Both the position numbers and the translations under genes were made by a program. The notes under the pieces were generated by a model. That model did no database searches. It was not told the origin of the DNA and worked only from the letters and a program-made list of their open reading frames with translations. A stretch of 64,000 nt of DNA from an uncultured virus (IMG/VR IMGVR_UViG_3300020048_000074) (taxonomy: Duplodnaviria; Heunggongvirae; Uroviricota; Caudoviricetes). The stretch is from the IMG/VR virus record IMGVR_UViG_3300020048_000074, positions 1 through 64,000 of that record. The stretch is one strand, 5' to 3'. This document shows positions 1 to 53,723 of the stretch, in pieces; position 1 is the stretch's first letter, and each line of letters starts with the position of its first letter.

Positions 1-55
1 CACGCCCTCGGGATGCTACAAGTTTTGTATTTTGGGGAGATAACGTGTTGGTAGG
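1..55 (-). repeat. 55-bp exact direct repeat of 3055-3109 (early promoter upstream and -35 part, cut by the window edge)
   Basis: cacgccctcgggatgctacaagttttgtattttggggagataacgtgttggtagg is identical at 1-55 and 3055-3109. Confidence 0.9.
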
Positions 56-81
56 TTGTTACTACACAACACGTCTATGGT

Positions 82-267
82 TTACCTCGAAACAGCCCAC
101 ACCGGATTGCCCTCGCTGTCACGCTCTTTAATCCGGTACGTCCAAATTCCAATCTGGGCCACTTTGTACTTAGTACCCATCGAGTCTTCAAGATCGGCCA
201 CCGCAGCTTTACGCTCGATGAGCTTTCCGGATCGGGTACGGACTTTGATCGTTTGCTGTTGAATCAT
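82..267 (-). CDS. small early hypothetical protein
   Basis: ORF 82..333; ATG at 267 follows GGAGGT SD; region upstream is a hairpin element. Confidence 0.65.
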   Translation of the reverse strand: MIQQQTIKVRTRSGKLIERKAAVADLEDSMGTKYKVAQIGIWTYRIKERDSEGNPVWAVSR

Positions 268-271
268 CGTT

Positions 272-332
272 ACCTCCATGGGATCGATATCCCGCAAGGG
301 ACTCTGTTTCCAAAGTCCCCCACGTGAGATCA
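272..332 (-). repeat. intergenic hairpin element copy 1
   Basis: TGA-long stem (gggacttt/agagtccc core)-small hairpin gggat/atccc-ATGGAGGT. Confidence 0.75.
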
Positions 333-641
333 AGCCTGCTGGCTCTCGTACAGCTTGACAAGCTTCTTGCTGGCTTCCTCCACCGGAGTAAACCCGCCGA
401 GCGTCAATCCGTATTCATCGAGCGACCAGTAAATCTCTTTACCGGCGATCGCGCTTTGATTCACGTCATGGGCGTCACCTATCACGCCACCGAAACATAA
501 ATCCAAAGCCCGAACAGTCGGAGCATTCTCGCATGGTACCAATTGCTCGATACCTGAAGCGTCCACCAAGATGAGAGCACCAAGCCCGCTTTGATACGTG
601 CCTCGAAACTCTTTGATCTTACCCTTGTTTATTTTTTCCAT
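330..641 (-). CDS. early hypothetical protein
   Basis: 103-aa ORF in tandem minus-strand array. Confidence 0.75.
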   Translation of the reverse strand: MEKINKGKIKEFRGTYQSGLGALILVDASGIEQLVPCENAPTVRALDLCFGGVIGDAHDVNQSAIAGKEIYWSLDEYGLTLGGFTPVEEASKKLVKLYESQQA

Positions 642-642
642 A

Positions 643-828
643 CTAAACCCCTTTCAATGCTTTCAGTGTTTCACCACCTCCGCATTCCTTGGTCCCTTTG
701 ACTTCGCAAGTCTCGCAAGCTGCAAGACCATTGAACTGCACAAGCCAACAATCACTTGTCAACTTGGATTGATCGATAACCTTCGTGTTGGTTATTTTTC
801 CATCACGACCCATCGTAGCGTACACCAT
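643..828 (-). CDS. small Cys-rich early protein
   Basis: 61 aa, C..CxxC..C, GGAGGT SD. Confidence 0.7.
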   Translation of the reverse strand: MVYATMGRDGKITNTKVIDQSKLTSDCWLVQFNGLAACETCEVKGTKECGGGETLKALKGV

Positions 829-829
829 A

Positions 830-893
830 AAACCTCCATCGGATTTACATCCGCGAAGGGCACCTCATTTGAAGTGCCTATCGTAGACGTTCA
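830..893 (-). repeat. intergenic hairpin element copy 2
   Basis: TGA-acgtct..ggcactt/aggtgcc..ggatgt; alternative hairpin cggat/atccg; ATGGAGGT. Confidence 0.75.
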
Positions 894-1325
894 GCTTGAG
901 GCGCGTTCAAAAACGCCTTCACCGTTACTGAATGTTCCAAGCCTTTTAAGAAGCCCGAATCCGTCTTCAACCAACTTAGCTCTAAGCTTCGTAAAGAAGT
1001 CCTCAGACCATTCGGTTGCAAACGCTTCCCAACATTCTTTCAAAGGTTCCCATGCATCATCATCCGCGTCTTCTTTCGGAACAATGGCAAGTGAGCAAAG
1101 TCCGCAATACTCGCTCAGCACTATTGATGCTATGCTGCATTTGCTTATTACCCTGCCCTCTCTCCCGATCCATTCATTATCCCCGGCAGCATCAAACCGA
1201 TTGTCAACCGATCCAATAACCGCGCATAGACTTGAAATGGTATCGTAAAAGAAATCCTCGTCATCGTCGTAACTGAAGTATAACACCGCAGCCGAATTGG
1301 AAGGTACATTTACGCTTCTACTCAT
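891..1325 (-). CDS. acidic early hypothetical protein
   Basis: 144-aa ORF, GGAGGT SD. Confidence 0.75.
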   Translation of the reverse strand: MSRSVNVPSNSAAVLYFSYDDDEDFFYDTISSLCAVIGSVDNRFDAAGDNEWIGREGRVISKCSIASIVLSEYCGLCSLAIVPKEDADDDAWEPLKECWEAFATEWSEDFFTKLRAKLVEDGFGLLKRLGTFSNGEGVFERASS

Positions 1326-1328
1326 ACT

Positions 1329-1394
1329 AAACCTCCACGGGGAAGTATCCCCCCTCTGCCCGCTCTTTCAAGTGGGCAGTAGGTGGCTACCTTA
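1329..1394 (-). repeat. intergenic hairpin element copy 3
   Basis: TAA-ggtagccacctactgccc..gggcagagggggatacttccccgtggaggt; close sequence homolog of copies 5 and 6. Confidence 0.85.
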
Positions 1395-1730
1395 TGATGC
1401 GGCAGAAAGCCGCAGCATCGCCTTGCGTATCTCATCTTTCGGTGGATACACATTTTCGGAAAGCGCCTTGAGATAAAGTTCATTGAACTTTTCGTTGGGC
1501 ACCCTGTCCGATCGATTACCCGGAAGCATGCCAAAATGCTTTCCAGTGGTCCTCGACCAAACATTCTCGCTGACTACATAACCGACCCCCGGTGCTCGAA
1601 ACGCGATAGGCGTTTGATACGAGAAATAAATGGTCATGTCACCAACCGTTATTTGCATCGTATGCGCACCGTAATTCTGGTTATCATAAGACCCGTAAGT
1701 CTTAACCTGTACATAATCACCGATGTTCAT
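1392..1730 (-). CDS. early hypothetical protein (FSYQTPIA..WSRTTGKH)
   Basis: ORF 1392..1742; ATG at 1730 after GGAGGT. Confidence 0.75.
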   Translation of the reverse strand: MNIGDYVQVKTYGSYDNQNYGAHTMQITVGDMTIYFSYQTPIAFRAPGVGYVVSENVWSRTTGKHFGMLPGNRSDRVPNEKFNELYLKALSENVYPPKDEIRKAMLRLSAAS

Positions 1731-1732
1731 AG

Positions 1733-1798
1733 AAACCTCCATTGGACTTTTCCGTCCATGGAGAGGGCCGGTTTCCCAGCCCCTACCATAGGCGCTCA
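1733..1798 (-). repeat. intergenic hairpin element copy 4
   Basis: TGA-cgcctatgg..ctgg-GAAA-ccgg..ccatggacg; alternative hairpin tggac/gtcca; ATGGAGGT. Confidence 0.75.
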
Positions 1799-2182
1799 GA
1801 TAAGCGGGATGTAGAGATTCGCATCCTTGGCAAACTGAGTGATTTTCGTGGCGGCATCGACCGCAGCTTTATTCCTGAGATCGTATGCCGCATCTTTATA
1901 GATGGACATGAACTCAATGAACGCCGCGATGGTTTGTGCTTGCAACGTCCGGTGGTCATGGGCCACCTTAATGAACATCGCCTGAGCTACCTCTTTTGGA
2001 TTACTGCCGTTCAAGGCATGCGACAAGGTTTCCATCGCTTCCCCGATGTGATCCCACCATTCCTTGTTGACGATCATCCTCTCGGCGTCAGCAAGCGTAG
2101 TTTCACCATTCGGCGTGAATGCGGCGTACCTGTCGATAGTCTCTTTGGCCTTTGCGCTTGCAAAGCTTTTGTTGTCTTCCAT
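1796..2182 (-). CDS. early hypothetical protein (helical)
   Basis: 128-aa ORF, GGAGGT SD. Confidence 0.75.
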   Translation of the reverse strand: MEDNKSFASAKAKETIDRYAAFTPNGETTLADAERMIVNKEWWDHIGEAMETLSHALNGSNPKEVAQAMFIKVAHDHRTLQAQTIAAFIEFMSIYKDAAYDLRNKAAVDAATKITQFAKDANLYIPLI

Positions 2183-2185
2183 ACA

Positions 2186-2250
2186 AACCTCCGTGGGAAA
2201 GTATTCCCCCTCCGGGCACTCCTTAAAATGCCCGGTAGGTGAATGCTTTA
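2186..2250 (-). repeat. intergenic hairpin element copy 5
   Basis: TAA-agcattcacctaccgggcatt..agtgcccggagggggaatactttcccacggaggt. Confidence 0.85.
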
Positions 2251-2619
2251 GCGGTGAGTAAAGACCCCGATCTTTACCTGAAACTGTCCAGCTTCGACAA
2301 TCGCGTAGCCGTACTTGCCGGAATCGTTTACGAGTTTCATAAACGCATCCACGGTAAGAGCCGGTTCCCTCGGGCTTCCGAATCCGGAAGAATCCACGAA
2401 GTACGCTCCGTAGCCAAGGTTGTCATCCTCGTAAACGCCCTGCATCGGCAGGCCCGCTTCCTTGATGTTTACCCGCTTCCAGCCCCGGGGACATCGTTCA
2501 CCGATGCTCGGGATTTTAAACTCTGCTTTCAGCTGAGGGATAAACGGCACGTCTCCGCGCTTTCTGCTGTCCTTAGCTGCCTGCTCGTTTAACTGCTTGA
2601 GTGCTTGTAAGCTGTACAT
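2248..2619 (-). CDS. early hypothetical protein
   Basis: ORF 2248..2631; ATG at 2619 after GGAGGT. Confidence 0.75.
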   Translation of the reverse strand: MYSLQALKQLNEQAAKDSRKRGDVPFIPQLKAEFKIPSIGERCPRGWKRVNIKEAGLPMQGVYEDDNLGYGAYFVDSSGFGSPREPALTVDAFMKLVNDSGKYGYAIVEAGQFQVKIGVFTHR

Positions 2620-2620
2620 A

Positions 2621-2687
2621 AAAACCTCCATGGGGAAGTGTCCCCCCTCTGCTCACTCTTTCAAATGAGCAGTAGGTGGATACCTTA
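2621..2687 (-). repeat. intergenic hairpin element copy 6
   Basis: TAA-ggtatccacctactgctcatt..agtgagcagaggggggacacttccccatggaggt. Confidence 0.85.
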
Positions 2688-2858
2688 ATCGACCGCAGTG
2701 TGAACCACCTGCTTACCGTTTAACTCGGCAAGCATCACGACCACCTCGTAGCTCTTCTTGGCCTTGAACTGCTTGGCAGCTTCAAGCTGCGCATGGTAGC
2801 TGGTATCGCTTTTTACTTCGATCCGCTTTCCACGATACATGCAAATATAACCGTTCAT
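2685..2858 (-). CDS. small early hypothetical protein (first gene of early operon)
   Basis: ATG at 2858 after GGAGGT. Confidence 0.7.
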   Translation of the reverse strand: MNGYICMYRGKRIEVKSDTSYHAQLEAAKQFKAKKSYEVVVMLAELNGKQVVHTAVD

Positions 2859-2877
2859 ACAAACCTCCAAATGCCTT

Positions 2878-2940
2878 TCTGGGTTTCGTCGTAATTCTCA
2901 ACGACTCAATCAGGGAACCTCTTTCGTGTTCCGACCCAAA
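2878..2940 (-). ncRNA. type III hammerhead ribozyme (one extra nt in core)
   Basis: UUUGGGUC / GGAAC-loop-GUUCC / CUGAUUGA / GUCGU-loop-ACGAC / GAAA / CCCAGA; three stems and GUC triplet present. Confidence 0.8.
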
Positions 2941-3047
2941 CCGTGTTACCGGTTTCTCTTTGGTCTGGTGTGGTGGACTACCGTTCCCGGCCTGCCTCAC
3001 TCTCGTCCCCACCGAGGCCGCGCTTTCTCTCGCTCCCCTACAACTTA

Positions 3048-3075
3048 ATTATACCACGCCCTCGGGATGCTACAA
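3048..3075 (-). promoter_or_regulatory. sigma70-type early promoter with extended -10
   Basis: TTGTAG-16 nt-TATAAT preceded by TG (TGgTATAAT); upstream part duplicated at 1-55. Confidence 0.8.
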
Positions 3076-3129
3076 GTTTTGTATTTTGGGGAGATAACGT
3101 GTTGGTAGGATGATTACTTTTGCGGGAAT

Positions 3130-3175
3130 AAAAAAATGCCGGTGCGGATGGAGGTAACCCATGATCGCACCGGCA
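3130..3175 (-). terminator. intrinsic terminator
   Basis: tgccggtgcg/cgcaccggca 10-bp stem followed by a T run on the minus strand. Confidence 0.75.
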
Positions 3176-3237
3176 AGCAGGCATGGCGCGAAGCGCACGC
3201 CCTTGAACTTAAAATATACAACAGCTTTGAAAGAATG

Positions 3238-8649: not shown

Positions 8650-11143
8650 GCTTCAAGCCTACTGAATCGAATATGTCTTGCAGCCGGGATTCATTTTTTT
8701 GACCCCAGCGCTGATTCACTTCTACATCCACCTTCATGATAACCGGCATGGCTTTCACAGGTGACTCAAAAGCAACTTGTATTGTATCACGCATTGCTTC
8801 AACTTCATACTCTGGATCGTCTACGATAACACAGTCATGGACCGTATGCACTATTTTTCCCTGTAGCCTTTGAACCTGTATAGCCTGCCTGAGTCTAATC
8901 AGTCCGATGTAGGTGTAATCAGCGGCCCCGGATTGTATAGGGCTATTCATCGCCTGTCGTTCAGCCTTCCCGATGTCGCCCCATTGGTCGGATAATCCAA
9001 GAGGCAGCCTTCGCTTTCTTCCAAAGACAGAAACCACGTACCCGTTTTTCCGTACCAATGCTTTCTGCTTTTCCATCCATCGCGCCACGTTCGGCAAGCG
9101 CTCAAAGTACAGCCCCATGAACTCGGTAGCCGCTTCGATGGTTATACCTAAAGACTTTGCCAAGCCCATTTCGCTCATCCCATAAACAAGTCCAAAATTG
9201 ATAGCCTTGGCCATCCTTCGTTCCAGTTTAGTACATACATAAGTAGGTGGCAAGTTATAAATCCTACGGAACGTTTCTGAATGGATATCCAAACCCTCAG
9301 CAAAAGCTTTCAAGAAAGTTTGCTCACCACTTATCGCCGCGATGGTAGCCATCTCAGCACTCTTCAAATCTGCCTCTACAAGCAGGTTGCCTATACTTGA
9401 AATGTAAAGAGAACGTACCAACCTATCGGCAGGCACATTCTGAAGGGATGGCTGCGATGCGCTGCACCTTCCAGTCACCGCGCCGGTAAGATTGTAGTGA
9501 GTATGCGCCCTCCCATCTTCAGGCCATGTAAAATCTATAGCCTGCCCGATATGGGTACCGAGCATTGTGCTCGTATACGCTCGATCCAAAAGGAACTTGG
9601 CAATCTCGCTGTCAGGCTGCGTAGCGATAAACTCTATGCTATCACTATCGGCACTGTACCCTCCCTTTGTTTCTTTCAGAGGCGCAAACTTCATTTCCTT
9701 ATACAAAACTTTTTGAAGTTGAATCGGGCTGTCGATGTTAAACTCTCTGCCCGCGCATCGATATATTTCCCGTTCTAGTTTCACGATTGTCTCTTTGCAT
9801 GCTTCACCTATTTTTACAGCCAGTTCCGTATCAACGCGTATCCCGTTTATTTCAGCGTCACTCATAACCCGGCGAACTGGCATGGCTATCTTTTCAAATA
9901 CCGACTCTACTTTTTCAATAGCCATAATCGGTTTAGTGGTTACATATATAATCCACGTGGCAATAGCATCATAAGAACCGTAAGGTGCCAGAAGCTCAAC
10001 AGGTATTTTAGAATAGTCCTCTTTTATCTTGTTCTCTTTTTTGTACTTTTCTAATGGAGTATCATACCCACCAAACTTGGTGTGCAGCCAAGCCAAATCC
10101 TTTAAGCGTTTAGAAAAGTTCTCATCTATAAGGTGGCAGCCTATCATAGTATCAAAATACTTGACGCCATTCACCTTGATCCCGTATACCATAGTCAAGA
10201 TGCGGACCTCGTAAGCTCCGTTATGCATTATCTTGTAATACTCTTTTCCGGATATAAGCTCAACAAATAAATTGTATATGTCTCTACGCGAGTTTAAAAC
10301 TTCCCAGCTAAAATAGTATCCCAAATCAGGCTGGTTACTAAACGAGCAACCTATCACCCACTTATCGATAGTTCGACCTTTACCCCCGGTTTCAATATCA
10401 AAAGCAAACGCCTTAGACTCTTGAAAACGTTTCAAGACGGCTAAGGCTATTCTGGGTTCAGTGACATACACCGATTTCGGCATAGGTGCATCAGGCAACT
10501 CAAGCTTACTCGTGGCCCATGCCTTTTTGAGATCAGCGACAATCAACCCGGATGTATAACTGGAATACCCGCGTTTCGTAACACAAGCGGTAGGGTGCAG
10601 CGTAGGCATCAGCCAGCACCCAAACTCCTGAAGCCAAACCATCTTGCCTTGCCAGCGGCCAATCCCGCTTACCTTACTGTCCTGCTTTTTCGCAGTGCCC
10701 TCTTCGGCACCGCCCTTATAAAAAGATTGCAGCATGGACGCAAGTGGAACGTTACCCATGGCTACGATTACTTTTGGCTTAACCATTTTTATTTCAGCTT
10801 CAAGGTATCGCCTGCATCGCATTATTTCGCTTACCGTTGGTACCTTGTCTTTAAGTGTATGACAACGAACCGCGTGACTAAACCGTATTTTGGATTCTGG
10901 TATTTTGGCGTCAACGAGTAATCGATCTCTAAGGTATTCACCGATAGCATCCATGAAGGGACGGTTCATGGAGTCATCGAACGCGCTTGGGTTTTCCCCC
11001 AGTATCATAACGTCAGCGTTGGACGGTCCTTCCCCTTCCATGCAAACAGATGAGGAATTCGCACAATGCTTGGCACAAAGTTGACAGGTAGGCCAGTAGC
11101 CTACTCCGTCTGGGATAACTTGCTTGTCAACTCTTCCAGCCAT
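8639..11143 (-). CDS. polA: family A DNA polymerase with N-terminal family-4 UDG-like domain and 3'-5' exonuclease
   Basis: CxxC..GEGP..GENP..PF UDG motifs; FDIET exonuclease; ADLKSAE, RRMAKAINFGLVYG, TVHD polymerase motifs. Confidence 0.95.
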   Translation of the reverse strand: MAGRVDKQVIPDGVGYWPTCQLCAKHCANSSSVCMEGEGPSNADVMILGENPSAFDDSMNRPFMDAIGEYLRDRLLVDAKIPESKIRFSHAVRCHTLKDKVPTVSEIMRCRRYLEAEIKMVKPKVIVAMGNVPLASMLQSFYKGGAEEGTAKKQDSKVSGIGRWQGKMVWLQEFGCWLMPTLHPTACVTKRGYSSYTSGLIVADLKKAWATSKLELPDAPMPKSVYVTEPRIALAVLKRFQESKAFAFDIETGGKGRTIDKWVIGCSFSNQPDLGYYFSWEVLNSRRDIYNLFVELISGKEYYKIMHNGAYEVRILTMVYGIKVNGVKYFDTMIGCHLIDENFSKRLKDLAWLHTKFGGYDTPLEKYKKENKIKEDYSKIPVELLAPYGSYDAIATWIIYVTTKPIMAIEKVESVFEKIAMPVRRVMSDAEINGIRVDTELAVKIGEACKETIVKLEREIYRCAGREFNIDSPIQLQKVLYKEMKFAPLKETKGGYSADSDSIEFIATQPDSEIAKFLLDRAYTSTMLGTHIGQAIDFTWPEDGRAHTHYNLTGAVTGRCSASQPSLQNVPADRLVRSLYISSIGNLLVEADLKSAEMATIAAISGEQTFLKAFAEGLDIHSETFRRIYNLPPTYVCTKLERRMAKAINFGLVYGMSEMGLAKSLGITIEAATEFMGLYFERLPNVARWMEKQKALVRKNGYVVSVFGRKRRLPLGLSDQWGDIGKAERQAMNSPIQSGAADYTYIGLIRLRQAIQVQRLQGKIVHTVHDCVIVDDPEYEVEAMRDTIQVAFESPVKAMPVIMKVDVEVNQRWGQKNESRLQDIFDSVGLKLAV

Positions 11144-11364
11144 ACTTCCCCGTATTCTTTATGTCCTATGCTTATCAAGCCTAGAATAGCAGCCACGGAA
11201 ACTCCGGGACTTGCTTTCCAGTCAACCAATAATCCAGATGGAATCATAGCCGCCACGAGATACGATTCAGCGCGTACCACATTGGAAACTGCCATTTTCT
11301 TTTCATCGCTTAAAACAGCGTACTCCATGGCGATGCATCCTTGCGTAATTGGATGAAGCGTCAT
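11101..11364 (-). CDS. hypothetical protein
   Basis: 87-aa ORF, ATGA-coupled to upstream gene. Confidence 0.5.
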   Translation of the reverse strand: MTLHPITQGCIAMEYAVLSDEKKMAVSNVVRAESYLVAAMIPSGLLVDWKASPGVSVAAILGLISIGHKEYGEVWLEELTSKLSQTE

Positions 11365-12263
11365 TTTGAACCACCCTTCAATCGATCGTACAGGGTTTCC
11401 ATCCCACTCTTTAAAAGAATGTCAGAAAACCCTTCGCATGAATAATTGGAATCCACCCATACAATGGAATCCAAAGGAACGCCCCCCATAGTTATCAACT
11501 CTATGTTACGTTTCAATATCCAGCTATTCATTCTAAGCTTTTCTTCCCAAACATCTTTACCGACACGACGAAGCAGCAACGCTATGTTCCGCTCAAGATT
11601 ATCATGGGTCTGAGGCAAGGAATTGCATAACCAAGACGCCAATTTTTTAGGGAACCTTGGAACCCCAGATATGTTATCTGAAGGATCACCGGTAAGCGCT
11701 TTGAATAGCCACAACCGATCGGCAGGTACCGGATCGGCATTGAACTTCTTTTTAAACTTTTTGTCCATGTCCTCTCTGGTCACTATGAAGCTATGCTGGT
11801 AATACACATCCCCAAAGTTTACCAGTGACCACCAATCCCAGTCCCCTGAAGAATAAAGCGACTTGCGTTTATCGGAAGGTGCTAAAGTAGCCACCACGTC
11901 ATCGGCCTCGTAAGTCTCAGCGTAGCACTGCCGCATCCCTATGATCGGCAGGTACTTTTTTAGCTGCTCAACACCATCAAAAAACTCCTTGGTTTCTTCA
12001 GGAGTTTTTGAATCGTGTCGTTGCGCTTTGTATATGGGGTACTTTTTCTTTCTCCAAGAATCAGAGCCTTCCCAAACAACCACCATATCGATCCCGGGAT
12101 TTTTTTGGCGCAAGTCTAAAGCCAGCCTAGTAAACCCAAAAAGTATACCAGTCTTATGCCCGTGATAGGATAGCTCAGGCATCCCAAAATAGCTTCGAGA
12201 TACTAGGTTCATCCCATCGATGTATACCACCTCGTAGGGTTTGTAATCAGATAAACTTTTCAA
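11361..12263 (-). CDS. 5'-3' exonuclease / flap endonuclease
   Basis: IDGMN, WRKKKYPIYKAQR, EADD, SGDWD, LTGDPSDNISGV. Confidence 0.92.
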   Translation of the reverse strand: MKSLSDYKPYEVVYIDGMNLVSRSYFGMPELSYHGHKTGILFGFTRLALDLRQKNPGIDMVVVWEGSDSWRKKKYPIYKAQRHDSKTPEETKEFFDGVEQLKKYLPIIGMRQCYAETYEADDVVATLAPSDKRKSLYSSGDWDWWSLVNFGDVYYQHSFIVTREDMDKKFKKKFNADPVPADRLWLFKALTGDPSDNISGVPRFPKKLASWLCNSLPQTHDNLERNIALLLRRVGKDVWEEKLRMNSWILKRNIELITMGGVPLDSIVWVDSNYSCEGFSDILLKSGMETLYDRLKGGSK

Positions 12264-13522: not shown

Positions 13523-16132
13523 CTACCACTTAATAGATTCCCGGATGTACTCAGGTATGAACTTCCTACACCTCTTGTAGTACCACGGGAATCCGCTATC
13601 TAAAATATAAGTTACCGCACGCTCTTTGCTGCTTCTCACCGATCGGCCAAGCGCTTGAATAAACATTACCGTGGTCATCCACCCGTACCACTCGGGATCA
13701 AGTTCCATCTTCCTTGCTACTACCTTATCACCTAAACTCGGATATGGTATCTTACAAAATATCTGAACCTTGCTCAGGTCGCCGCGCAAATCAAGACCTT
13801 CCCGTAAACCACTTGCTACTATGATTGACCCCGGCTTGTTGGTGTGCTCCTCCAACATCTCCTGCGGTGTATCGTAATCCTTGTTGAACGTGTAGCGTGG
13901 ATCATCAAGATACCGCTTCAAATAACTTGCTATCTTTTCTGAATGCGTTTGTATAATCCCTTTTCTGTCCGGATGCATCGCAGCAATCTCTTCAATGATT
14001 TCCACGATCGAAGGAAGCGTAGCGTCTATATCCTTGTACCCCATTTTCCCGGCATACTTTTTTACTATTGGTCGATTCTCAGCGGGAAAGGAACTCGGAA
14101 CGGCAACGTAATAAACTTCAGCGGGATTAAGCCCCACATCTTTACAGAACATTTCTTTGTCAAGAATAGTCGCGCTCATCATGAGGGAGCGTTCACCGTA
14201 TTCAAACAACCAACGAGAAGCGTAGTCGCCAACGTATACCGGCCTGAACATTACCGAGGGAGCATACCTCCCAGTTTCCGAATAATCGAAAACATATTCT
14301 GCCGGGTTATCGCTTCCGCGCTCCGCAAGATACCGTTTCATTCGATGCACTATTTGAGATAGCTCTTGCATCCGAAACAAGCCCTCTTTGCTCAAGCCGT
14401 CAACCTCGAACTGGGCTTCAAACTTCGCGTACTCTTCGCAGTAATCCGCATACGCTGATTTAACAAACGAATCGTACTCGGCTAAAGTATCCGCTTCAGG
14501 AACCGTGATACCACCCCGGCTGTTTATAGTAAAAGAAAGAAACTCAGAAAACTTGTTTGCAATGTTATGGCAATTGTGCACTACAACGCCATTAACCACG
14601 TAGGTATGCAAATCCTCTACTTCAATATCATAGACTGAACCTTCAGGACACAATTCTTCAAATCTGCCATCACTTCCTTGTTTGATAACCTCAACACTCT
14701 CCACCCTAGCAAACCCAGAACGATTTCTTTCCGATGATCCTGCTCTTTCCGAACTAAAGAGCCATGAGAACCACCGTCCACCTCTACGGCTATTTGATAC
14801 GTTCGATTCGCCACATCTATCTTGTAGTGCTTTGGGCAACGATACTCTTCCCGAAGTAACACGGAAGTTGGTACAATCACTTCGGTTTCCCATCCGAGAC
14901 TTTTTGACAACAGAATTTGAGCTTTGGTTAAGCCCCTCCCGTTTCCACCTCTCACAGGGGGCTGCCAACCCATCGTCCGTAAAGTAGCCGATGCCTTTGC
15001 GCGTGTCTCCGCTGACTTCATGGGATTGTTTCGTGTCATACGAATCGAGGACGCATTGCGAGCCTCCACAGAGACAGTTCGCCCCATCATAGCAACAGAC
15101 TTTGCCGATAGACCACATTTTCTGGAACAGTACACTACCCCATGTCTTTTGTAGTGTGATATTTTCCCTTGGCTGAGACACACAAAAGAAGTTCCACAAA
15201 AACTGCACGATGCTTCCAAATAGTGGTAAGCGGCTTTTTCGTTTGATATTGGCCCACGTCTTCCCATAACCATTATTGTACTCCATGTTTTGCACAATGT
15301 CCATACCAAGTTTTAATTTATTAGCTTCTACCCACCCAGAGGCAGTCAAAAATAGATGGTTGCCAGTGCACCTCACGATAGACTGGTTTCCAAAAGTAAC
15401 TTGATAAAGAGTGCTTGTACTTTTAACAAACTTATTCAAAACCTTTTTAAGCTTAAAAGCTTTATTACCAACATCATAAGCCCAAACCATATCCCCAACT
15501 TTAATGTCATGTATCAACGTGTTACCACGCTCACACATCACAGGAGTTGATCCAACAAAACACTCATCAATGATTATAAGCTTCCTACCTTGGAACCCGG
15601 CACCGAAAGAGTTCTGGTAATAAAAAGAATCAAAGTTATGCACGGTGACCACCGCGCTCAAAGCGCTACCCTTCGCCCTTCGATAAGGGCACCCATCGCA
15701 GGGCATTCGTTTCTTCAAACGACAAGGGCCATTCGCGCAGGTAGTGCCTACATCCCCCGCTAAACATTCGTAAGCGCCCCGGCCCTTCATAACGAACATA
15801 TCAGAAAACTCAGACTCGTATTGATCCTGAAGTATTTTCTGAGCAGTCAAAATATGAGCATTTCCAGATTGAAACGCAAGTGCACGCGCTATATGACTTT
15901 TACCGGACCCTGTAGGTGCATCCACCACGACATGCCGGTAACCTTTCTCGTAAGCTGCCTCGATCTCTTCTATGGTTTCTCGTTGGTAAGGTCGGTAGGA
16001 TTCCGCAACGAAGTAATCCGTAGCTCTTCCTGAAGTGCCAAATATGTTTGTCTCCCCACCAACAGGATTGATATCCTCTCCCGGAGCTGCCCCGATGTCT
16101 GTATCAGTAAATGGTGCTTCGCACATAAACAT
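13523..16132 (-). CDS. DinG/XPD-like SF2 helicase containing an intein
   Basis: APTGSGKS, Cys cluster, DE|CH motif II split by the intein, MSAT, EGLD, QALGRSVR. Confidence 0.92.
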   Translation of the reverse strand: MFMCEAPFTDTDIGAAPGEDINPVGGETNIFGTSGRATDYFVAESYRPYQRETIEEIEAAYEKGYRHVVVDAPTGSGKSHIARALAFQSGNAHILTAQKILQDQYESEFSDMFVMKGRGAYECLAGDVGTTCANGPCRLKKRMPCDGCPYRRAKGSALSAVVTVHNFDSFYYQNSFGAGFQGRKLIIIDECFVGSTPVMCERGNTLIHDIKVGDMVWAYDVGNKAFKLKKVLNKFVKSTSTLYQVTFGNQSIVRCTGNHLFLTASGWVEANKLKLGMDIVQNMEYNNGYGKTWANIKRKSRLPLFGSIVQFLWNFFCVSQPRENITLQKTWGSVLFQKMWSIGKVCCYDGANCLCGGSQCVLDSYDTKQSHEVSGDTRKGIGYFTDDGLAAPCERWKREGLNQSSNSVVKKSRMGNRSDCTNFRVTSGRVSLPKALQDRCGESNVSNSRRGGRWFSWLFSSERAGSSERNRSGFARVESVEVIKQGSDGRFEELCPEGSVYDIEVEDLHTYVVNGVVVHNCHNIANKFSEFLSFTINSRGGITVPEADTLAEYDSFVKSAYADYCEEYAKFEAQFEVDGLSKEGLFRMQELSQIVHRMKRYLAERGSDNPAEYVFDYSETGRYAPSVMFRPVYVGDYASRWLFEYGERSLMMSATILDKEMFCKDVGLNPAEVYYVAVPSSFPAENRPIVKKYAGKMGYKDIDATLPSIVEIIEEIAAMHPDRKGIIQTHSEKIASYLKRYLDDPRYTFNKDYDTPQEMLEEHTNKPGSIIVASGLREGLDLRGDLSKVQIFCKIPYPSLGDKVVARKMELDPEWYGWMTTVMFIQALGRSVRSSKERAVTYILDSGFPWYYKRCRKFIPEYIRESIKW
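14617..15273 (-). CDS. Vsr/DUF559-like endonuclease with Zn finger and NUMOD3-like repeats, in a shifted frame inside the intein
   Basis: CSFC..YCSRKC, NPMKSAETRAKASATL, IDVA..IAVEVDGGSH..QDHRKE..GWRVLRLSNKEV; start 15273 (GGAG SD) or 15267. Confidence 0.88.
   Translation of the reverse strand: MVMGRRGPISNEKAAYHYLEASCSFCGTSFVCLSQGKISHYKRHGVVYCSRKCGLSAKSVAMMGRTVSVEARNASSIRMTRNNPMKSAETRAKASATLRTMGWQPPVRGGNGRGLTKAQILLSKSLGWETEVIVPTSVLLREEYRCPKHYKIDVANRTYQIAVEVDGGSHGSLVRKEQDHRKEIVLGLLGWRVLRLSNKEVMADLKNCVLKVQSMILK
15275..15303 (-). promoter_or_regulatory. internal sigma70-type promoter for the nested endonuclease
   Basis: TGGACA-17 nt-TACAAT, 7 nt before ATG at 15267. Confidence 0.6.
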
Positions 16133-19369: not shown

Positions 19370-20514
19370 AGGGCAGCCTCCAATGACTTAATTATTTCGA
19401 TCACGTCAGCGTAGACTTCCGGCTCTTCAAGAATCATAGCCAAACCACGCGATGTGTAATACTTTCCCTTTGACGGAATATACAAAACATCCCCTTTTAC
19501 TTTCGGGACAATAACCGGCTCAACCTTTTTTATTTTCTTTTGTCCCATGCCCGGTTTGGACGCCTGTTTTGTTTCTATAACCTCTACTTCTTTTACTTTA
19601 ATCTTTGGGGGTTTAAACGCCCCGGCGAACTCCAAGAATGAAATCGTATCGGCTACCTTGTCGATACCCTTCCCGTATTCAATCACAAAAGATGCGGTAC
19701 GATGTGGAGGATACAACTTGTTTTTCACCACTTTAACATTGGTACCGGTTCCGGTTTCAATTCCCGCCTCTTCCGCGCCATAACCCATCAACGTCTTTCC
19801 TGTTTTTTTCTCAGACCGTGGGGCGCGTACTTCTAAGCGATAAGAAGCATAAAACTTTAAAGCGTTTCCACCTGAAGTGGTTTCTGGATTACCAAACATA
19901 ACGCCAATTTTCAAACGTATTTGATTTATAAAAATAATAATAGCGCCTGTCTTTGCGACCAATCCAGTCAACTTGCGAAGGGCTTGGCTCATAAGACGAG
20001 CTTGAAGACCAACATGGGCTTCACCCATTTCACCCTCAAGCTCAGCGCGTGGAACCAGAGCAGAAACAGAATCGATAACTACAAGCCGATACCCGGACTT
20101 TATGGCGATTTCAACTTCATTCAAAGCGTCTTCACCGCAGTCCGGTTGGCTTATAGATAGGTTCTCAAGGTTGACACCCAAGCACTCAGCATAAAACACA
20201 TCGAGCGCATGTTCAGCGTCAACAAAAAGACATGGAATAGGTTCCCCGGTAAGTGCTTCAAGTTTCTGAGCCTCAGCAATAGCGTGAAGCGTCAGCGTAG
20301 TCTTTCCAGATTGCTCAGGACCATACACCTCAGCGATACGGCCCCAAACAAACCCGACAAAAGGCGATCCAGAAAGCGACATATTCAGCCTCAAGCTGGT
20401 CAATGATAATCCGTGGGTCAACCGCTTACCCTTTTCGGCTACCAGAGTACCAAGGGCATCACGATTCAACGCGGCGTTTACTTTAGCTCGAAGTTCGTCA
20501 TGTCTCATTTCCAA
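19366..20514 (-). CDS. recA: RecA recombinase
   Basis: [45 protein letters not shown]. Confidence 0.97.
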
Positions 20515-20969
20515 GTCCTCATACTAACAATATTCAAGATTGTAGTTTTTGACACACCATACAACCTAGCTAAGCTTACAGCGCTGCAAGAGTGGGATTT
20601 ATTACCCAAATTAACATAGGTCTTACGGATGTCCATAACTTCAGCTTCAGTAAGTCTGGTATTAAAATTACGTTCATGAAGCGCCGTTCTTTTTTTAAGT
20701 GCCGCGTCATGATTATTATCTTTGTGGCTACCTAAGAAAAGATGGTCTGGGTTTACACACTTAGGGTTATCACATGAATGGCATACTAGCATCCCTTTTG
20801 GTATCTCACCATATTTTTTCTCATAAGCCGCCCGATGAGCACCAACTTTCTTACCTCGTAAGGTTAAAAGAGTGTATCGACAATTACCACTACCGCATAA
20901 TGCTACATGCGAGGTAATCTCTATGCACCCTGAATTAGTTGTTTGGTACTCTATCGGGCGACTCAACAT
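20505..20969 (-). CDS. free-standing HNH homing endonuclease with C-terminal HTH
   Basis: [42 protein letters not shown]. Confidence 0.9.
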
Positions 20970-22583: not shown

Positions 22584-23665
22584 TTAAATATTTAACCGAT
22601 TTACGTTTTCCCGGGAATCCAATCGCGCTTTGTCTTTCTCGGCGCTATGAATCATCCTGTCAATACCTTTACCACGTGCCATTCCCGATATGAGGATGTG
22701 CACCTGAAGGGAGGTGAGCTTTTTGTTGAAATACGAACACCGAAGCGAATCCGGGGTATGCCGGGTCGCCTTGGACACCGACTGAAGCACGTGCTCAATG
22801 AACTGAAGCGTATCGGGCTTGTCTTTCCAGCTTTCAGGTATCCCGATCGACACCACGTAGCGCTTGGCCGTTCGCATGTCTAATGAGCCGAAAACCAGAC
22901 TGGCATCGCGGATCATGGTTGACAAGACATCGCTCGTAGACAGATCAAACGTCAGTTGCCTGATGTCTGTGTACCCGCTCTTCGAGAACAGAACACGCCG
23001 GACATCGTTTTTATCCAACGCCTNNNNNNNNNNGCCTTGTACCCGCTTGCCACATCGATAAACGCAGCAAAGCGATCGATCTCGGTAAGCAGCCAGAAGC
23101 GTTTCAACGCAGCTACGATGCCTTTGTTTACCGCGCCCCAGTAATCAAACCCTTCACCATTCCCGTACCGCTTTACGCAGTATTCGTTGTCGATCAAAAG
23201 GATTGATATTTTTTCAGGCTGGATGTATCGGGCGATAAGCCGGTCGAGCGACACCAACGCATTCGGCTTGGTTGGAATGCCCTCGCGGTCTTCAGGCAGC
23301 GTGAATACTAAAAACACTTCTTTCTTTTTCAAAAGCAGGTACTCGATCAATGGGAACATGAACCCGGTCCCGGCACCACCGCCACCGCCTACGATGACGA
23401 GAATGTATTTTGAATCCTCAAACGACGAACGCGTTAAAAACGCTTTAACGTCATCGAACCGATTCTTTACCATCTGCTCACCAAACTCGGGGTTTCTCCC
23501 TGTCCCACCCTCTTCAAAAATCAAGACGTTTTTTCTGTCGGTTTCAAGGTGTGTGAAATCGACACCGGCAAGATTCATGTACATGGTTGGAACGTCAAAC
23601 CCTTTTCCAAACGACTGAGCAAGCCTACCGCCGCCCTGACCTAATCCGATTACGAAATCAAACAC
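22584..23665 (-). CDS. tubulin/FtsZ-family GTPase (TubZ/PhuZ-like), interrupted by an assembly gap at 23024-23033
   Basis: IGLGQGGGRLA, GGTGRNPEFG, GGGGGAGTG signature, IDN; collapsing the duplicated gcct flanks restores the frame GYKALDKND; GTG start after GGAGGT. Confidence 0.88.
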
Positions 23666-50300: not shown

Positions 50301-51506
50301 TTAAAACGTATTCTTTGGCGAACCCGGCTCGTCTACTTTCGTAACCTTTGAAGGATCAAGCGTGGTTACATCCAATACGCTTGGATCAACTATAACCGAA
50401 GAAACAGGCTTTGGGTATGCCAAAGTGGTAACGTCTTCTATTTTGGATGACACGCGGATAGACCCTGTTATTTTAGGGGTTCCAAGCGAGTCGCGTATTC
50501 GTTTTATTACCCTTTGAAAAAACGTATCGGCTATTCCGATCACATCAGATATAAAACGCGTCATGCGCTTTCCGGCAGACAAGCTATCAGTGATCCCTTG
50601 CGTGTCTGATTTTAAACGCCTGTAAGCCAACCATCGGGTAAGCGTATGAGTTACTATTACGGAATCAATGACTGTTTTTTTATACGCCGCTTTTCTGGCA
50701 AGCGTCATGGTGATTCCAATCGAGTTTGCAATGCTTCTAAGTATTATTTTTATAGCATTTAACGACATGGTTATATTCACCGTGTTTGAAACCGTTCTAA
50801 ACGCGCTTTTCTTCCGCACTATAGTTTCAGTGACCGATACGCTGTTGATTGTGGTTCTAACGTAGCCCATTTTCTTTGATATCGATGAAGTTATACCAAC
50901 CGTGTTGGATATCGAACGTAATAATATCTTAATAAGGTTTAAAGTATGCGTTATTCCAACCGTGTTGGCTATGCCGCGTATAAATCCGCGTATTTTAGTT
51001 AGTGCATCGGTAATTCCAACGGTATTGCTTATTGATTTTTTTACATCCCATTTTCTTGAGAGCGTATGGGTTATTCCTTCAGTGTTTGAAATCGATCGGT
51101 AGGCTGATTGTATCCTGCCTAGAGTATGTGTGATTCCAATTGTGTTTGCTATCGATCTAAAAAGGATTTTAAACGCGGCTAGGGTATGCGTAATTCCAAC
51201 TGGGTTGCTCACTGCTCGTTTGTACCCTAAGACCCTCCCAAAAGTATGCGTGATACCTTCGGTGTCTAAAAACGTTCTATATGCTGATTTTATACGCGAT
51301 AGAGCATGTGTAATTCCAATCGAGTTAGCTATCGATCTCGTAAAAGCAGTTCCACCGCCACCGGTTAAAGTTCTCGTAGGGTGCACCCAAATCTGGTAGG
51401 CTATCCCATCAATTAAAGTGCCGTCTGGTGCCGCAGGGGTCCCCGGGTCAAGCGTGCGAGTTGGATGAGTCCATATTGCATCTGCAATTTGCGCCGGGGT
51501 ATACAT
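50301..51506 (-). CDS. basic virion-associated protein with 14 x 20-aa repeats
   Basis: repeating RSI(A/S)NTVGITHTL.. Confidence 0.8.
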   Translation of the reverse strand: MYTPAQIADAIWTHPTRTLDPGTPAAPDGTLIDGIAYQIWVHPTRTLTGGGGTAFTRSIANSIGITHALSRIKSAYRTFLDTEGITHTFGRVLGYKRAVSNPVGITHTLAAFKILFRSIANTIGITHTLGRIQSAYRSISNTEGITHTLSRKWDVKKSISNTVGITDALTKIRGFIRGIANTVGITHTLNLIKILLRSISNTVGITSSISKKMGYVRTTINSVSVTETIVRKKSAFRTVSNTVNITMSLNAIKIILRSIANSIGITMTLARKAAYKKTVIDSVIVTHTLTRWLAYRRLKSDTQGITDSLSAGKRMTRFISDVIGIADTFFQRVIKRIRDSLGTPKITGSIRVSSKIEDVTTLAYPKPVSSVIVDPSVLDVTTLDPSKVTKVDEPGSPKNTF

Positions 51507-53289: not shown

Positions 53290-53723
53290 TACGAAACCTC
53301 CTGTTTCTTTAAGGCCCTGCTGACCTGATACATGACGGTGTATTCCTTTATCTCGTTCACAGAATATCTCTTGTTTGTATTTGAGTTACGCTCCAAGCGA
53401 AGTTCATAAAACTTAATAGCTATTTCTGCTTGAGCTTTTTTAAGAACTAAAAACTTTACTACATCGCGCAACACTTGATATGCCACGCCCCCATTGAACT
53501 GAATAACACTAACCGGGTGGCCTGTCATACTTTTCCTTTTGTAAATGCTACCTCCAAGTCCGTTCTGTATATGCACTAACGGAAAAGGGTCTTTTTGAAC
53601 AATTTGTAGCCTTAGTCCAAACCGAGGGGTGTCTCTCCCTTTCCCCATGCTTTTAGTAACAGAGATGCAACCCTCCCCGTCTATGAATCCCGCCAGCCAA
53701 GCTTTATTCAGAGTTGCCGCCAT
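53289..53723 (-). CDS. single-motif LAGLIDADG homing endonuclease
   Basis: WLAGFIDGEGCI, LQIVQKD, LVLKKAQA. Confidence 0.9.
   Translation of the reverse strand: MAATLNKAWLAGFIDGEGCISVTKSMGKGRDTPRFGLRLQIVQKDPFPLVHIQNGLGGSIYKRKSMTGHPVSVIQFNGGVAYQVLRDVVKFLVLKKAQAEIAIKFYELRLERNSNTNKRYSVNEIKEYTVMYQVSRALKKQEVS

Follow-up and report, generated by a model that had tools for sequence, protein, structure and literature searches.

Six intergenic elements in the early operon of an uncultured tailed phage belong to an RNA family that is absent from Rfam; its covariation is unusually clear, and two folds that exclude each other are both conserved. The family occurs only in early operons, and only in a small clade of uncultured myoviruses from aquatic habitats. 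We tentatively read the elements as intercistronic mRNA punctuation modules, with a predicted cut that would probably be made in the long conformer by an RNase III-type enzyme of the host, a preference held with limited confidence. Their layout is a natural counterpart of the engineered insulators that are built from ribozymes or RNase sites.

Elements of the early operon and their distribution

The window, i.e. the whole stretch of DNA that was analysed, covers 64,000 nucleotides of a 91-kb genome. The early operon occupies positions 82..2858 on the minus strand and comprises eight small ORFs of 57-144 aa separated by the elements: g1 (2858-2685), g2 (2619-2248), g3 (2182-1796), g4 (1730-1392), g5 (1325-891), g6 (828-643), g7 (641-330), and g8 (267-82). 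Only g6 and g7 directly abut, with no element between them. No Pfam family was found in the eight small ORFs, and PHROGs yielded only two families, of unknown function. An early promoter (TTGTAG, 16 nt, TGnTATAAT) was read from the sequence at 3048..3075 on the minus strand; a simple promoter scan omitted it, the -35 match being just 3/6. Part of this promoter (3055-3075) lies inside a 58-bp direct repeat (3055-3112, with a second copy at 1-58; family D10, copies 98% identical), and the same repeated promoter layout occurs in the relatives L019, L007, and L036. Positions 60-3060 of the window are present in three DNA runs from aquatic or freshwater metagenomes, while one run of the same study has next to none of this segment; no RNA run was listed among the runs containing it.

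The initial annotation had placed six intergenic elements in this region, each beginning at the upstream stop codon. Both statements were confirmed by a covariance model (R1, seeded on ten copies), which matches at all six positions on the minus, coding strand, each match extending from the stop codon of the preceding gene as far as the following ATG. In the 5' to 3' direction, an element consists of the stop codon, a stable tetraloop hairpin (hairpin A), a short G-C hairpin (hairpin B), the ribosome site GGAGGT, and ATG. Three sequence types were distinguished. Type I includes E6 (2617..2687, between g1 and g2; 80.2 bits, fold z -3.25), E5 (2180..2250, between g2 and g3; 78.5 bits, z -3.32), and E3 (1323..1394, between g4 and g5; 75.7 bits, z -3.31). 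E6 illustrates the layout, with the stop codon TAA, a hairpin A of 10 bp with a GAAA loop above the lower stem, hairpin B, GGAGGT, and ATG. The type III elements E4 (1728..1800, between g3 and g4; 31.1 bits, E 5.6e-8, z -3.40) and E2 (826..893, between g5 and g6; 27.6 bits, E 1e-6, z -4.19) are outside the seed. In E4, a 2x2 internal loop lies between the lower stem and hairpin A, and a CUCCA anti-SD stretch lies 3' of hairpin A. Type II is represented by E1 (265..332, between g7 and g8; 71.3 bits, z -3.64).

The model recovered all six window copies (27.6-80.2 bits) and a seventh, E7, at ~89.6 kb of the genome (about 89,608-89,680), with no further copies in the 91-kb genome at E<0.01. It was used instead of a preliminary hairpin descriptor, which missed E3 by one mismatch and returned 8 weak, chance-like sites elsewhere. 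The compensatory stems CTGCTC/GAGCAG, CTGCCC/GGGCAG, and CCGGGC/GCCCGG, listed previously for three copies, are readable on the minus strand. The accompanying view that the remaining three copies retain only the structure did not hold: a model seeded without them recovered them with E 8.6e-23, 3.4e-08, and 6.2e-07, E2 and E4 are sequence homologues of one another, and sequence homologues of E1 occur beyond the window, at ~89,608-89,680 of the genome, and in L007 (14687-14755).

In five related phage records, 24 additional copies were found, and ~198 kb of control loci contained 0 copies by the covariance model. The orthologues of E4 and E2 in L019 lie at 11344-11414, where compensatory changes are present, and 12083-12154, respectively; the slot of E3, ahead of the g5 orthologue, is occupied in the same record by an element with a differing stem (11592-11658). 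The elements are restricted to early-operon gaps. The phage itself has no DNA similarity to any entry in a collection of 50,697 phage records, and its terminase shares no more than about 23% identity with those of named phages. Among viral contigs, the exact type I motif gave 0 matches and a gapped type I pattern matched 5 loci, L029 being the only true carrier by the model; L031 and L032 reached only E 4.6 on the opposite strand, and L030 and L033 had no model match. The 12 loci detected with a hairpin-B pattern included 0 confirmed by the covariance model. The sole match in a cellular genome was to a contig in a MAG titled as an archaeon, and all 9 element matches in this 2.3-Mb record (150 of 419 candidates scored) fall on one phage-like contig. 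As a clue to the host the archaeal label is uninformative, and it was set aside because promoters, terminators, and ribosome sites are all of a bacterial kind.

Covariation and two mutually exclusive folds

The elements are real RNA structures under selection. Their fold energies range from -28.7 to -33.4 kcal/mol and are far lower than those of their shuffled versions with the same dinucleotides (z -3.25 to -4.19); per element, 0-1 of 200 such shuffles fold equally well. The control stretch 2855-2930 folds poorly (z +0.84), and the control stretch 636-700 has a z of -4.21 yet just -14.9 kcal/mol. A conserved structure had been proposed in the initial annotation as a subject for covariance modelling, and base pairing indeed covaries strongly: of 504 pair cells, 94.2% are paired, compared with 62.4% after shuffling, and 16 of 17 pairs have changes on both sides. 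None of 500 shuffles matched the observed pairing values, and slid controls gave 42-56%. When the alignment was not fitted to the structure, the corresponding values were 94.6% and 70.7%. The sense strand folds better than the antisense strand in 24 of 25 elements. Selection thus acts on RNA pairing, given the G-U pairs, this sense-strand bias, and the compensatory changes. The loops of hairpin A are of the GAAA type in the window and L019 and of the UACG/UGCG type in L036 and L007; they are selected for stability rather than identity. Outside the stop codon, the ribosome site, and ATG, only two G residues, one in the 3' arm of hairpin A and the other in the 5' arm of hairpin B, are conserved in at least 90% of the 31 copies.

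Two folds compete for the same strand. The long form is a single interrupted hairpin of ~16-21 bp, made of the lower stem and hairpin A, and in the tandem form hairpins A and B abut. The lower-stem columns 11-49 are paired in 22 and columns 12-48 in 23 of 24 sequences, and both pairs covary; columns 48 and 49 alternatively pair with columns 85 and 84 in hairpin B. The competition of the long hairpin with hairpin B is therefore backed by covariation, which upholds the two-state structure put forward at the outset. For 13 of 25 elements, the constrained energies of the long and tandem forms differ by no more than 2 kcal/mol. In 17 of 31 copies, folding to minimum energy yields the long form with at least 16 bp (18-24 rungs). 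For the window copies and E7, with the ribosome site left out, the tandem form is the minimum-energy fold in 6 of 7, and the long helices of these copies have only 12-17 bp. Two interruptions of the long helix recur: the mismatch columns 13/47 are unpaired in 18 of 25 copies, and in the type III internal loop the pair 18-41 is open in 6 and the pair 19-40 in 4 of 25 copies.

Both folds reach into the translation signals. Pairing in the long form begins at the stop codon or within a few nucleotides of it (median offset 2), and the helix of type II copies includes the stop codon; in 5 of 8 type II copies, the flank of the stop codon can pair, through differing sequences, with hairpin B, namely its loop and 3' strand. 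In type I, the 3' strand of hairpin B can pair with GGAGGU in the long state, and GGAGGU is freed in the tandem state, whereas in type III the CUCCA stretch masks the ribosome site in the tandem state. A single logic of ribosome-site masking for all copies was accordingly rejected, types I and III being opposite. The probability of an unpaired ribosome site varies from 0.04 to 0.94 across the elements. Hairpin B had been described as lying right beside the SD sequence; this is true of the window, where it lies 2-3 nt upstream of the ribosome site, but not of the other copies in relatives, where the distance is 5-37 nt.

Self-cleaving ribozymes in the same operons

The leader of the operon (~180 nt) is closed by a hammerhead type III-like RNA at 2878..2940 on the minus strand, which matches the full Rfam model RF00008 (positions 1-54) with 39.4 bits and E 2.4e-6, below the gathering score of 48.5, and ends 10 nt before the ribosome site of g1. 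Its core is complete except for one extra U in CUGAUGA, and the predicted cut is between 2933 and 2932; passages of PMC3088659 report that a core insertion of this kind lowers activity. At the same position, the end of the leader, L019 and L007 have a two-hairpin element. A twister-P5 RNA (53.3 bits) lies in the gap adjoining E7, in the next operon, and twister-P5 matches are located in gaps other than those of the elements. The L007 operon contains two type II hammerheads (50.2 and 39.5 bits) in consecutive gaps, its other gaps holding two-hairpin elements. According to the alignment, the cut of a type II hammerhead would leave the upstream RNA with a 3' tetraloop hairpin and the downstream RNA with a 5'-terminal hairpin. 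The two-hairpin elements and self-cleaving ribozymes thus occupy equivalent slots, which may bear on the function of the elements by analogy.

The role of hammerhead and twister ribozymes in phages is still described as unknown (PMC6765202). The relevant passages of PMC3088659 propose that clustered hammerheads flanking phage genes cut long transcripts into gene-length mRNAs, and place a hammerhead just upstream of the first gene of the early transcript in haloviruses HF1 and HF2. The elements resemble these clusters in their slots, in the operons that they share in the phages studied here, and in the proposed role in cutting transcripts. In contrast to hammerheads, they are without a ribozyme core (CUGANGA, GAAA, and UH are absent), have almost no conserved unpaired nucleotides, and have no Rfam ribozyme match. 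Within positions 1-3200 of the window, none of the six elements matched hammerhead models at E up to 5, the only match being that at 2878-2940. Models of twister, twister-sister, pistol, hatchet, hairpin, and HDV-like ribozymes likewise gave no element at the gathering score or at E up to 5.

Proposed punctuation by cutting and competing readings

The preferred mechanism would start from intercistronic RNA that adopts either the long hairpin beginning at or next to the stop codon or the tandem of hairpins A and B. A double-strand-specific endonuclease of the host, presumably of the RNase III type, would cut the long form in the 3' strand of the lower stem. This would leave the upstream mRNA with the very stable tetraloop hairpin A at its end, which should block 3' exonucleases, and the released 3' strand would re-pair with its other partner to form hairpin B at the extreme 5' end of the downstream mRNA. 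Located before a strong ribosome site, hairpin B could then guard against 5'-end-dependent RNases and insulate the ribosome site. We infer the cutting itself, the position of the cut, and the identity of the enzyme. Processing by RNase III was one of the options offered in the initial annotation, and it is now the best supported of them, because self-cleaving ribozymes fill equivalent slots of the same operons and because the hammerhead II cut gives a matching product layout; RNase III is the putative enzyme. No phage RNase III or other RNase was seen in a Pfam search of 71 proteins, the larger ones of the genome, and no phage-encoded nuclease that could act on the elements is recognisable among these proteins or the eight small ORFs.

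A 34-nt hairpin suffices as a substrate of RNase III from E. coli, and the general properties of its sites were taken from the same source (PMC1540722). The internal loops or mismatches that characterise cutting of one strand are present in the elements, at columns 13/47 and as the type III loop. The early region of phage T7 contains RNase III sites from R0.3 to R1.3, with a helix of about two turns, possibly reached by coaxial stacking; with at least 16 bp in 17 of 31 copies, the long form of the elements may approach this length. Like the elements, the T7 sites are interrupted hairpins, occur in the leader and between the cistrons of an early operon that the host polymerase transcribes, and contain internal loops that would confine the cut to a single strand, so that a protective hairpin stays at the 3' end. 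The elements differ from them in the extra hairpin B, which shares a strand with the lower stem, in their three sequence types, in their coexistence with ribozymes in equivalent slots, and in having no sequence similarity to any record of the phage collection. The early mRNA of Bacillus phage SP82 is reportedly cut by RNase III at intercistronic stem-loops, and a 5'-proximal structure or polypurine sequence is said to stabilise the cleaved mRNA. The elements resemble these sites in layout, as intercistronic stem-loops with a predicted 5' stabilising structure, and to our knowledge bistability has not been described for the SP82 sites. The lower stem would be melted by any ribosome that stops at the stop codon, and cutting would have to compete with translation. 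The preference of E1-E7 for the tandem form, in six of the seven, and their short helices of 12-17 bp count against cutting.

The involvement of the stop codon is also the starting point of a different proposal, in which the elements are uncut, ribosome-actuated bistable switches or insulators: a terminating ribosome would melt the lower stem, hairpin B would form, and the site for the next ribosome would be presented differently, giving translational coupling or insulation from it. A translation-coupled switch was likewise among the options of the initial annotation. The near-isoenergetic states, the start of the long helix within a few nucleotides of the stop codon (which in type II is itself inside the helix), and the pairing of GGAGGU in the long but not the tandem state of type I are all consistent with this. 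The type I copies can even be drawn as an alternative four-segment pairing similar to the translational attenuator of the ermC leader, in which pairings 1:2/3:4 alternate with 2:3 and a ribosome covers the first segment, except that the elements have a long tetraloop hairpin between segments 1 and 2. However, this masking logic is not common to types II and III, the accessibility of the ribosome site varies widely, hairpin B is 5-37 nt from that site in the other copies of relatives, and the ribozymes in equivalent slots are left unexplained; we consider a switch rather unlikely. Passive structural spacers, which would make the polycistronic mRNA more stable, hinder exonucleases or the loading of Rho, and prevent ribosome sites from pairing with adjacent coding sequence, with neither cleavage nor switching, would account for the stability-optimised loops, for spacers that are G-rich and structured throughout, and for a hairpin A without the tail of an intrinsic terminator. 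They would explain neither covariation that keeps two exclusive pairings nor the exchange with ribozymes in the same slots, and such a role seems improbable. Intrinsic terminators were rejected as a candidate: the scan listed no hairpin A and found 4 sites against 3.2 expected, and the sole site within an element (2639-2624) is an alternative hairpin between the B strand and the ribosome site.

The slots shared with ribozymes could also mean that the elements are a new self-cleaving class that replaces hammerhead and twister there. Passages of PMC4604425 describe pistol, hatchet, and twister-sister as found in a like setting, in intergenic regions near hammerheads or twisters and phage genes; the elements have the three-way-junction topology of the type II hammerhead, and pairing of the flank with a loop is possible in type II copies. 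Yet no conserved junction core was found in the 31 copies, the junctions are of 0-2 nt, the loops are generic tetraloops, and the two conserved G residues lie in stems, which, with the failure of the Rfam ribozyme models to match, makes a new ribozyme very unlikely. The least probable reading, for which we see hardly any chance, is that of DNA-level recombination junctions whose primary role is the exchange of gene cassettes, as described in PMC4122927 for the PeSLs of T4-like phages. The resemblance lies in short repeated intergenic motifs that border small variable early genes. The gene order g3, g4, g5, g6, g7 of the window is g3, g6, g5, g7 among the orthologues in L019, with breakpoints at the elements, and the 5' halves of the elements track the upstream gene, being 33/40 and 31/40 identical to the orthologous copy against 22-26/40 for other compared pairs; the 3' halves are too similar (23-26 of ~30) to reveal linkage to the downstream gene. 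PeSLs, however, are composite terminator-promoter DNA motifs, whereas the elements have RNA-level covariation without a convincing promoter or terminator tail. The promoter cassette was rejected, as just one of six elements has a promoter-like match (9 of 12 positions, 1371-1344) and the region is poorer in matches than its shuffles (2 against 3.3). An integron attC-like site, which needs a partner integrase and a structure read on single-stranded DNA, was also rejected, as no integrase or other specific recombinase was seen among the 71 proteins scanned and the G-U pairs favour the mRNA-sense structure in 24 of 25 copies; exchange needs none of the selected RNA pairing. Cassette exchange, another option of the initial annotation, therefore stands as an evolutionary side effect, visible in the shuffled gene order, and not as the main role.

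The punctuation reading can be extended, though here we are doubtful, to a clade in which almost all cistron boundaries of the early polycistronic mRNAs would be punctuated by RNA-cutting modules that can replace one another, the bistable element being a new autonomous member. The set would include hammerhead II and III, twister-P5, perhaps a tRNA-like unit, and the bistable two-hairpin element, which might cleave itself as a minimal ribozyme or else act as a conformational switch, triggered by the ribosome and licensing cleavage once the upstream gene has been read. If this were true, it would provide the first direct functional context for the orphan hammerhead and twister ribozymes of phages. 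Should ribozymes and a plain hairpin module indeed be interchangeable, what they have in common is probably the segmenting of operon mRNA into pieces capped by hairpins at both ends. The reshuffled gene cassettes appear to have the same boundaries as the predicted processed mRNAs, which would tie RNA processing to genome modularity.

The early operon and its two-hairpin elements

The virus is represented by a single contig of 91,440 bp (47% G+C), of which the window is the first 64 kb, and its minus strand holds almost all genes. Pfam matches among the 71 proteins scanned identify a myovirus (tail sheath, baseplate J, portal, SU10-like capsid, terminase) that encodes replication proteins of its own (family A DNA polymerase, RecA, DnaB-like helicase, primase, SbcCD); the scanned proteins include neither a recognisable RNA polymerase nor a recognisable RNase. 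The region carrying the elements is an early-type operon read from right to left, in which an extended -10 promoter (3075-3048, minus) is followed by a leader of roughly 180 nt and eight small ORFs, g1 to g8 (57-144 aa), none with a Pfam family. The promoter overlaps part of a 58-bp direct repeat (3055-3112 and 1-58, 98% identical), which covers its -35 element and spacer, and the contig begins inside one copy of this repeat. The closest relative is L019, with 76% identity in the terminase; a second promoter copy there drives a MoxR-like ATPase gene, the same gene that is cut by the far end of our contig; by this synteny, the contig ends adjoin in the real genome.

Also on the minus strand are a helicase gene interrupted by an intein with Intein_splicing and HINT domains (13526-16126), free-standing HNH and LAGLIDADG endonuclease genes (20508-20969; 53292-53723), a tubulin/FtsZ-like protein (22955-23665), and, beyond the window, a protein of 2553 aa in which pyrophosphatase, zeta-toxin-like kinase and SNF2 helicase domains are joined (genome positions 66,457-74,118, in L035). 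Diverged direct repeats (families D1, D5 and D9) at 50,700-51,340, within the ORF 50301-51506, are spaced by multiples of 60 bp, implying a repeat of roughly 20 aa in an unannotated protein.

In all six window elements (E1-E6), the order on the minus strand is upstream stop codon, lower stem, hairpin A (8-13 bp upper stem, 4-nt loop), hairpin B (4-6 bp), GGAGGT and, after 4-6 nt, ATG. The initial annotation had proposed six such elements, and this stands: each folds better than its shuffled versions (z from -3.25 to -4.19; at most 1 of 200 shuffles did as well), and all six were recovered by a covariance model seeded with ten copies of types I and II. Of the two stretches used as controls, 636-700 likewise had a low z (-4.21), though its energy was half as large; the z of the second was not low. 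The copies least like the seed, E4 and E2, scored 31.1 and 27.6 bits. The model also found a seventh copy, E7, at 89,608-89,680, and nothing further below E 0.01 in the whole genome (the window, L034 and L035). A degenerate eighth copy in L034 (genome positions 87,209-87,283, minus), not detected below that threshold, has a type III-like lower stem and a hairpin A of 8 bp with a 7-nt loop, and lacks hairpin B.

Distribution, structural constraint and alternative folds

The elements are present in five related phage records (L019, L029, L007, L002 and L036), with one further copy in each of two shorter records, L001 and L021 (both 25.7 bits). At E below 0.001, 31 copies were found in the window, L034, L001 and the five related records, all on the coding strand. 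The model had no matches in ten other loci (142,773 bases) or in twelve pattern-matched loci (55,153 bases), and none below E 0.1 in four AT-rich terminase relatives (L003-L006). L036 belongs to a MAG record of 2.3 Mb, and all nine matches there, with 150 of 419 candidates scored, fell on a single phage-like contig. Three sequence types were distinguished: type I (E3, E5 and E6, with copies in L019, L029, L002 and L036), type II (E1 and E7, with five copies in L036 and several in L007) and type III (E2 and E4, with two copies in L019 and further ones in L007, L029 and L001). Their lower-stem sequences differ, yet one model aligns all three; the copies initially thought to keep only the structure are therefore detectable relatives of the others.

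In the alignment of the 31 copies, which was fitted to the model and so favours structure, 94.2% of 504 cells were paired (62.4% after shuffling; 42-56% in slid controls), and 16 of 17 pairs had changed on both sides. A MAFFT alignment of the ten seed copies, not fitted to the model, gave 94.6% paired against 70.7% shuffled, with 11 of 17 pairs changed on both sides. The observed values were reached by 0 of 500 shuffles in either alignment. Compensatory stem changes are seen directly in orthologous pairs, such as E3 and its counterpart at 11592-11658 in L019, both preceding the g5 gene. In 24 of 25 copies the sense strand gives the better fold, a bias that G-U pairs are expected to cause. Outside the stop codon, the ribosome site and the ATG, only two residues are conserved in at least 90% of the 31 copies, both G, one in the 3' arm of hairpin A and the other in the 5' arm of hairpin B. 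The hairpin A loops differ between phages (GAAA-like in the window and L019; UACG, UGCG or UAUG in L036 and L007), so they appear to be chosen for stability rather than recognition.

The long interrupted hairpin is hairpin A extended downwards, and its helix starts at or within a few nucleotides of the stop codon (median offset 2). Of 24 copies, 22 form its column pair 11-49 and 23 form 12-48, and both pairs covary (U-A, C-G, U-G); columns 48 and 49 also pair with 85 and 84 in hairpin B. One strand thus has two conserved partners, which upholds the two-state structure proposed earlier. In five of eight type II copies, the flank containing the stop codon forms 5-9 bp with hairpin B (its loop and 3' strand), using different sequences. 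By constrained energies, the two states differ by less than 2 kcal/mol in 13 of 25 copies, and in 16 of the 25 it is the long state that lies lower. When folded from stop codon to ribosome site, 17 of 31 copies have the long form as their minimum-energy structure (at least 16 bp, 18-24 rungs); among the window copies, the tandem form of hairpins A and B wins in five of six.

Ribozyme matches in corresponding gaps

The operon leader ends with a hammerhead type III-like RNA (2878-2940, minus) that stops 10 nt short of the first gene's ribosome site. In a permissive Rfam search covering 1-3200, it matched the full-length model with 39.4 bits (gathering score 48.5; E 2.4e-6). Its core is intact except for one extra U in CUGAUGA, and the predicted cut lies between 2933 and 2932. 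Its activity is uncertain, since PMC3088659 reports that an insertion next to A6 lowers hammerhead activity. The same end-of-leader slot is filled by a two-hairpin element in L019 and L007 (E 1.3e-4 and 2e-4). In the next operon, outside the window, a twister-P5 ribozyme (genome positions 90,554-90,612, L034:6555-6613, minus; 53.3 bits, gathering score 37.6) sits between the MoxR-like ATPase and DUF3150 genes, and the following gap holds E7. L007 carries two type II hammerheads in consecutive intercistronic gaps (13671-13736 and 13962-14027, plus; 39.5 and 50.2 bits, gathering score 37), and the other gaps of these operons hold two-hairpin elements. Another twister-P5 match in L029 (7879-7940, minus; 39.9 bits) lies 30 nt upstream of a gene start. 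Because ribozyme matches and two-hairpin elements occupy corresponding gaps, the slots are probably functionally equivalent, with a predicted self-cutting RNA as the occupant of several. At locus L022, a tRNA-like sequence with a GGTTCGATTCC T-loop (726-800, plus; tRNA-Sec model, 30 bits, E 0.04) directly follows the terminase stop codon; it is a further candidate for an RNA-processing signal placed between cistrons.

By the alignment, a type II hammerhead cut releases an upstream RNA that terminates, shortly after the stop codon, in the tetraloop hairpin of stem III, and a downstream RNA headed by the stem I hairpin; cutting the elements between hairpins A and B would produce exactly this layout. 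Perreault et al. (PMC3088659) propose that phage hammerheads found in clusters flanking genes serve to cut long transcripts into mRNAs of gene length. They also describe a hammerhead in a halovirus, 13 nt ahead of the first early gene and close to a mapped 5' end.

Proposed role and neighbouring RNA signals

From the equivalent slots, the shared product layout and this earlier proposal, we infer that the elements would act as mRNA punctuation modules. Rfam ribozyme models had no matches to the six elements, and this, with the lack of a conserved junction core, argues against self-cleavage and points to a structure-specific host enzyme. RNase III substrates span about two helical turns, coaxial stacks being accepted and a 34-nt hairpin sufficing, and internal loops limit cleavage to a single strand, leaving a protective hairpin at the 3' end (PMC1540722); by analogy, these properties would fit the elements. 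On this reading, cutting would act on the long form, and the products would be capped at their ends by hairpins A and B; the strand that the two states share would then have to pair in the long form as well as in hairpin B, which would explain the two-state property.

A ribosome-driven switch is an attractive alternative, given a helix that begins at the stop codon. Types I and III, however, mask the ribosome site in opposite ways, and the probability of the site being unpaired spans 0.04 to 0.94. Readings of the elements as terminators or promoters were not supported. Recombination at the elements is real but looks secondary. The orthologues of g3, g5, g6 and g7 are ordered g3, g6, g5, g7 in L019, with breakpoints at elements, and the 5' halves of the elements track the upstream gene (33/40 and 31/40 identical, against 22-26/40 for the other pairs compared). 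The 3' halves resemble one another too closely for such linkage to be judged. The exchanged cassette seems to be the predicted processed mRNA. As punctuation modules, the elements would work like the T7 early RNase III sites and the phage ribozyme clusters, and by the tests run they are members of neither. Rfam has no family for them, the phage collection held no similar DNA, and no description of such an element was found in the open-access literature searched.

Further RNA signals lie near the early operons. The leaders behind repeated promoters in L007 (12840-13086 and 15650-15880) and L036 (about 9,330-9,540) share a motif, a hairpin then ATCAAGTTCC, which had no Rfam match and suggests a structured leader RNA. 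In the window, an intrinsic terminator (3130-3174, minus) follows a C39-like peptidase gene, and a TTGACA-17-TATATT match lies just upstream of it (3241-3213). The terminator's 19-nt loop has an anti-Shine-Dalgarno-like stretch whose complement is found in the ribosome sites, invariant among the early genes (that of g8 matches perfectly over 11 nt), a loop motif kept in L019 and L036 with different stems; it could be a small RNA or a terminator loop that shuts off early translation.
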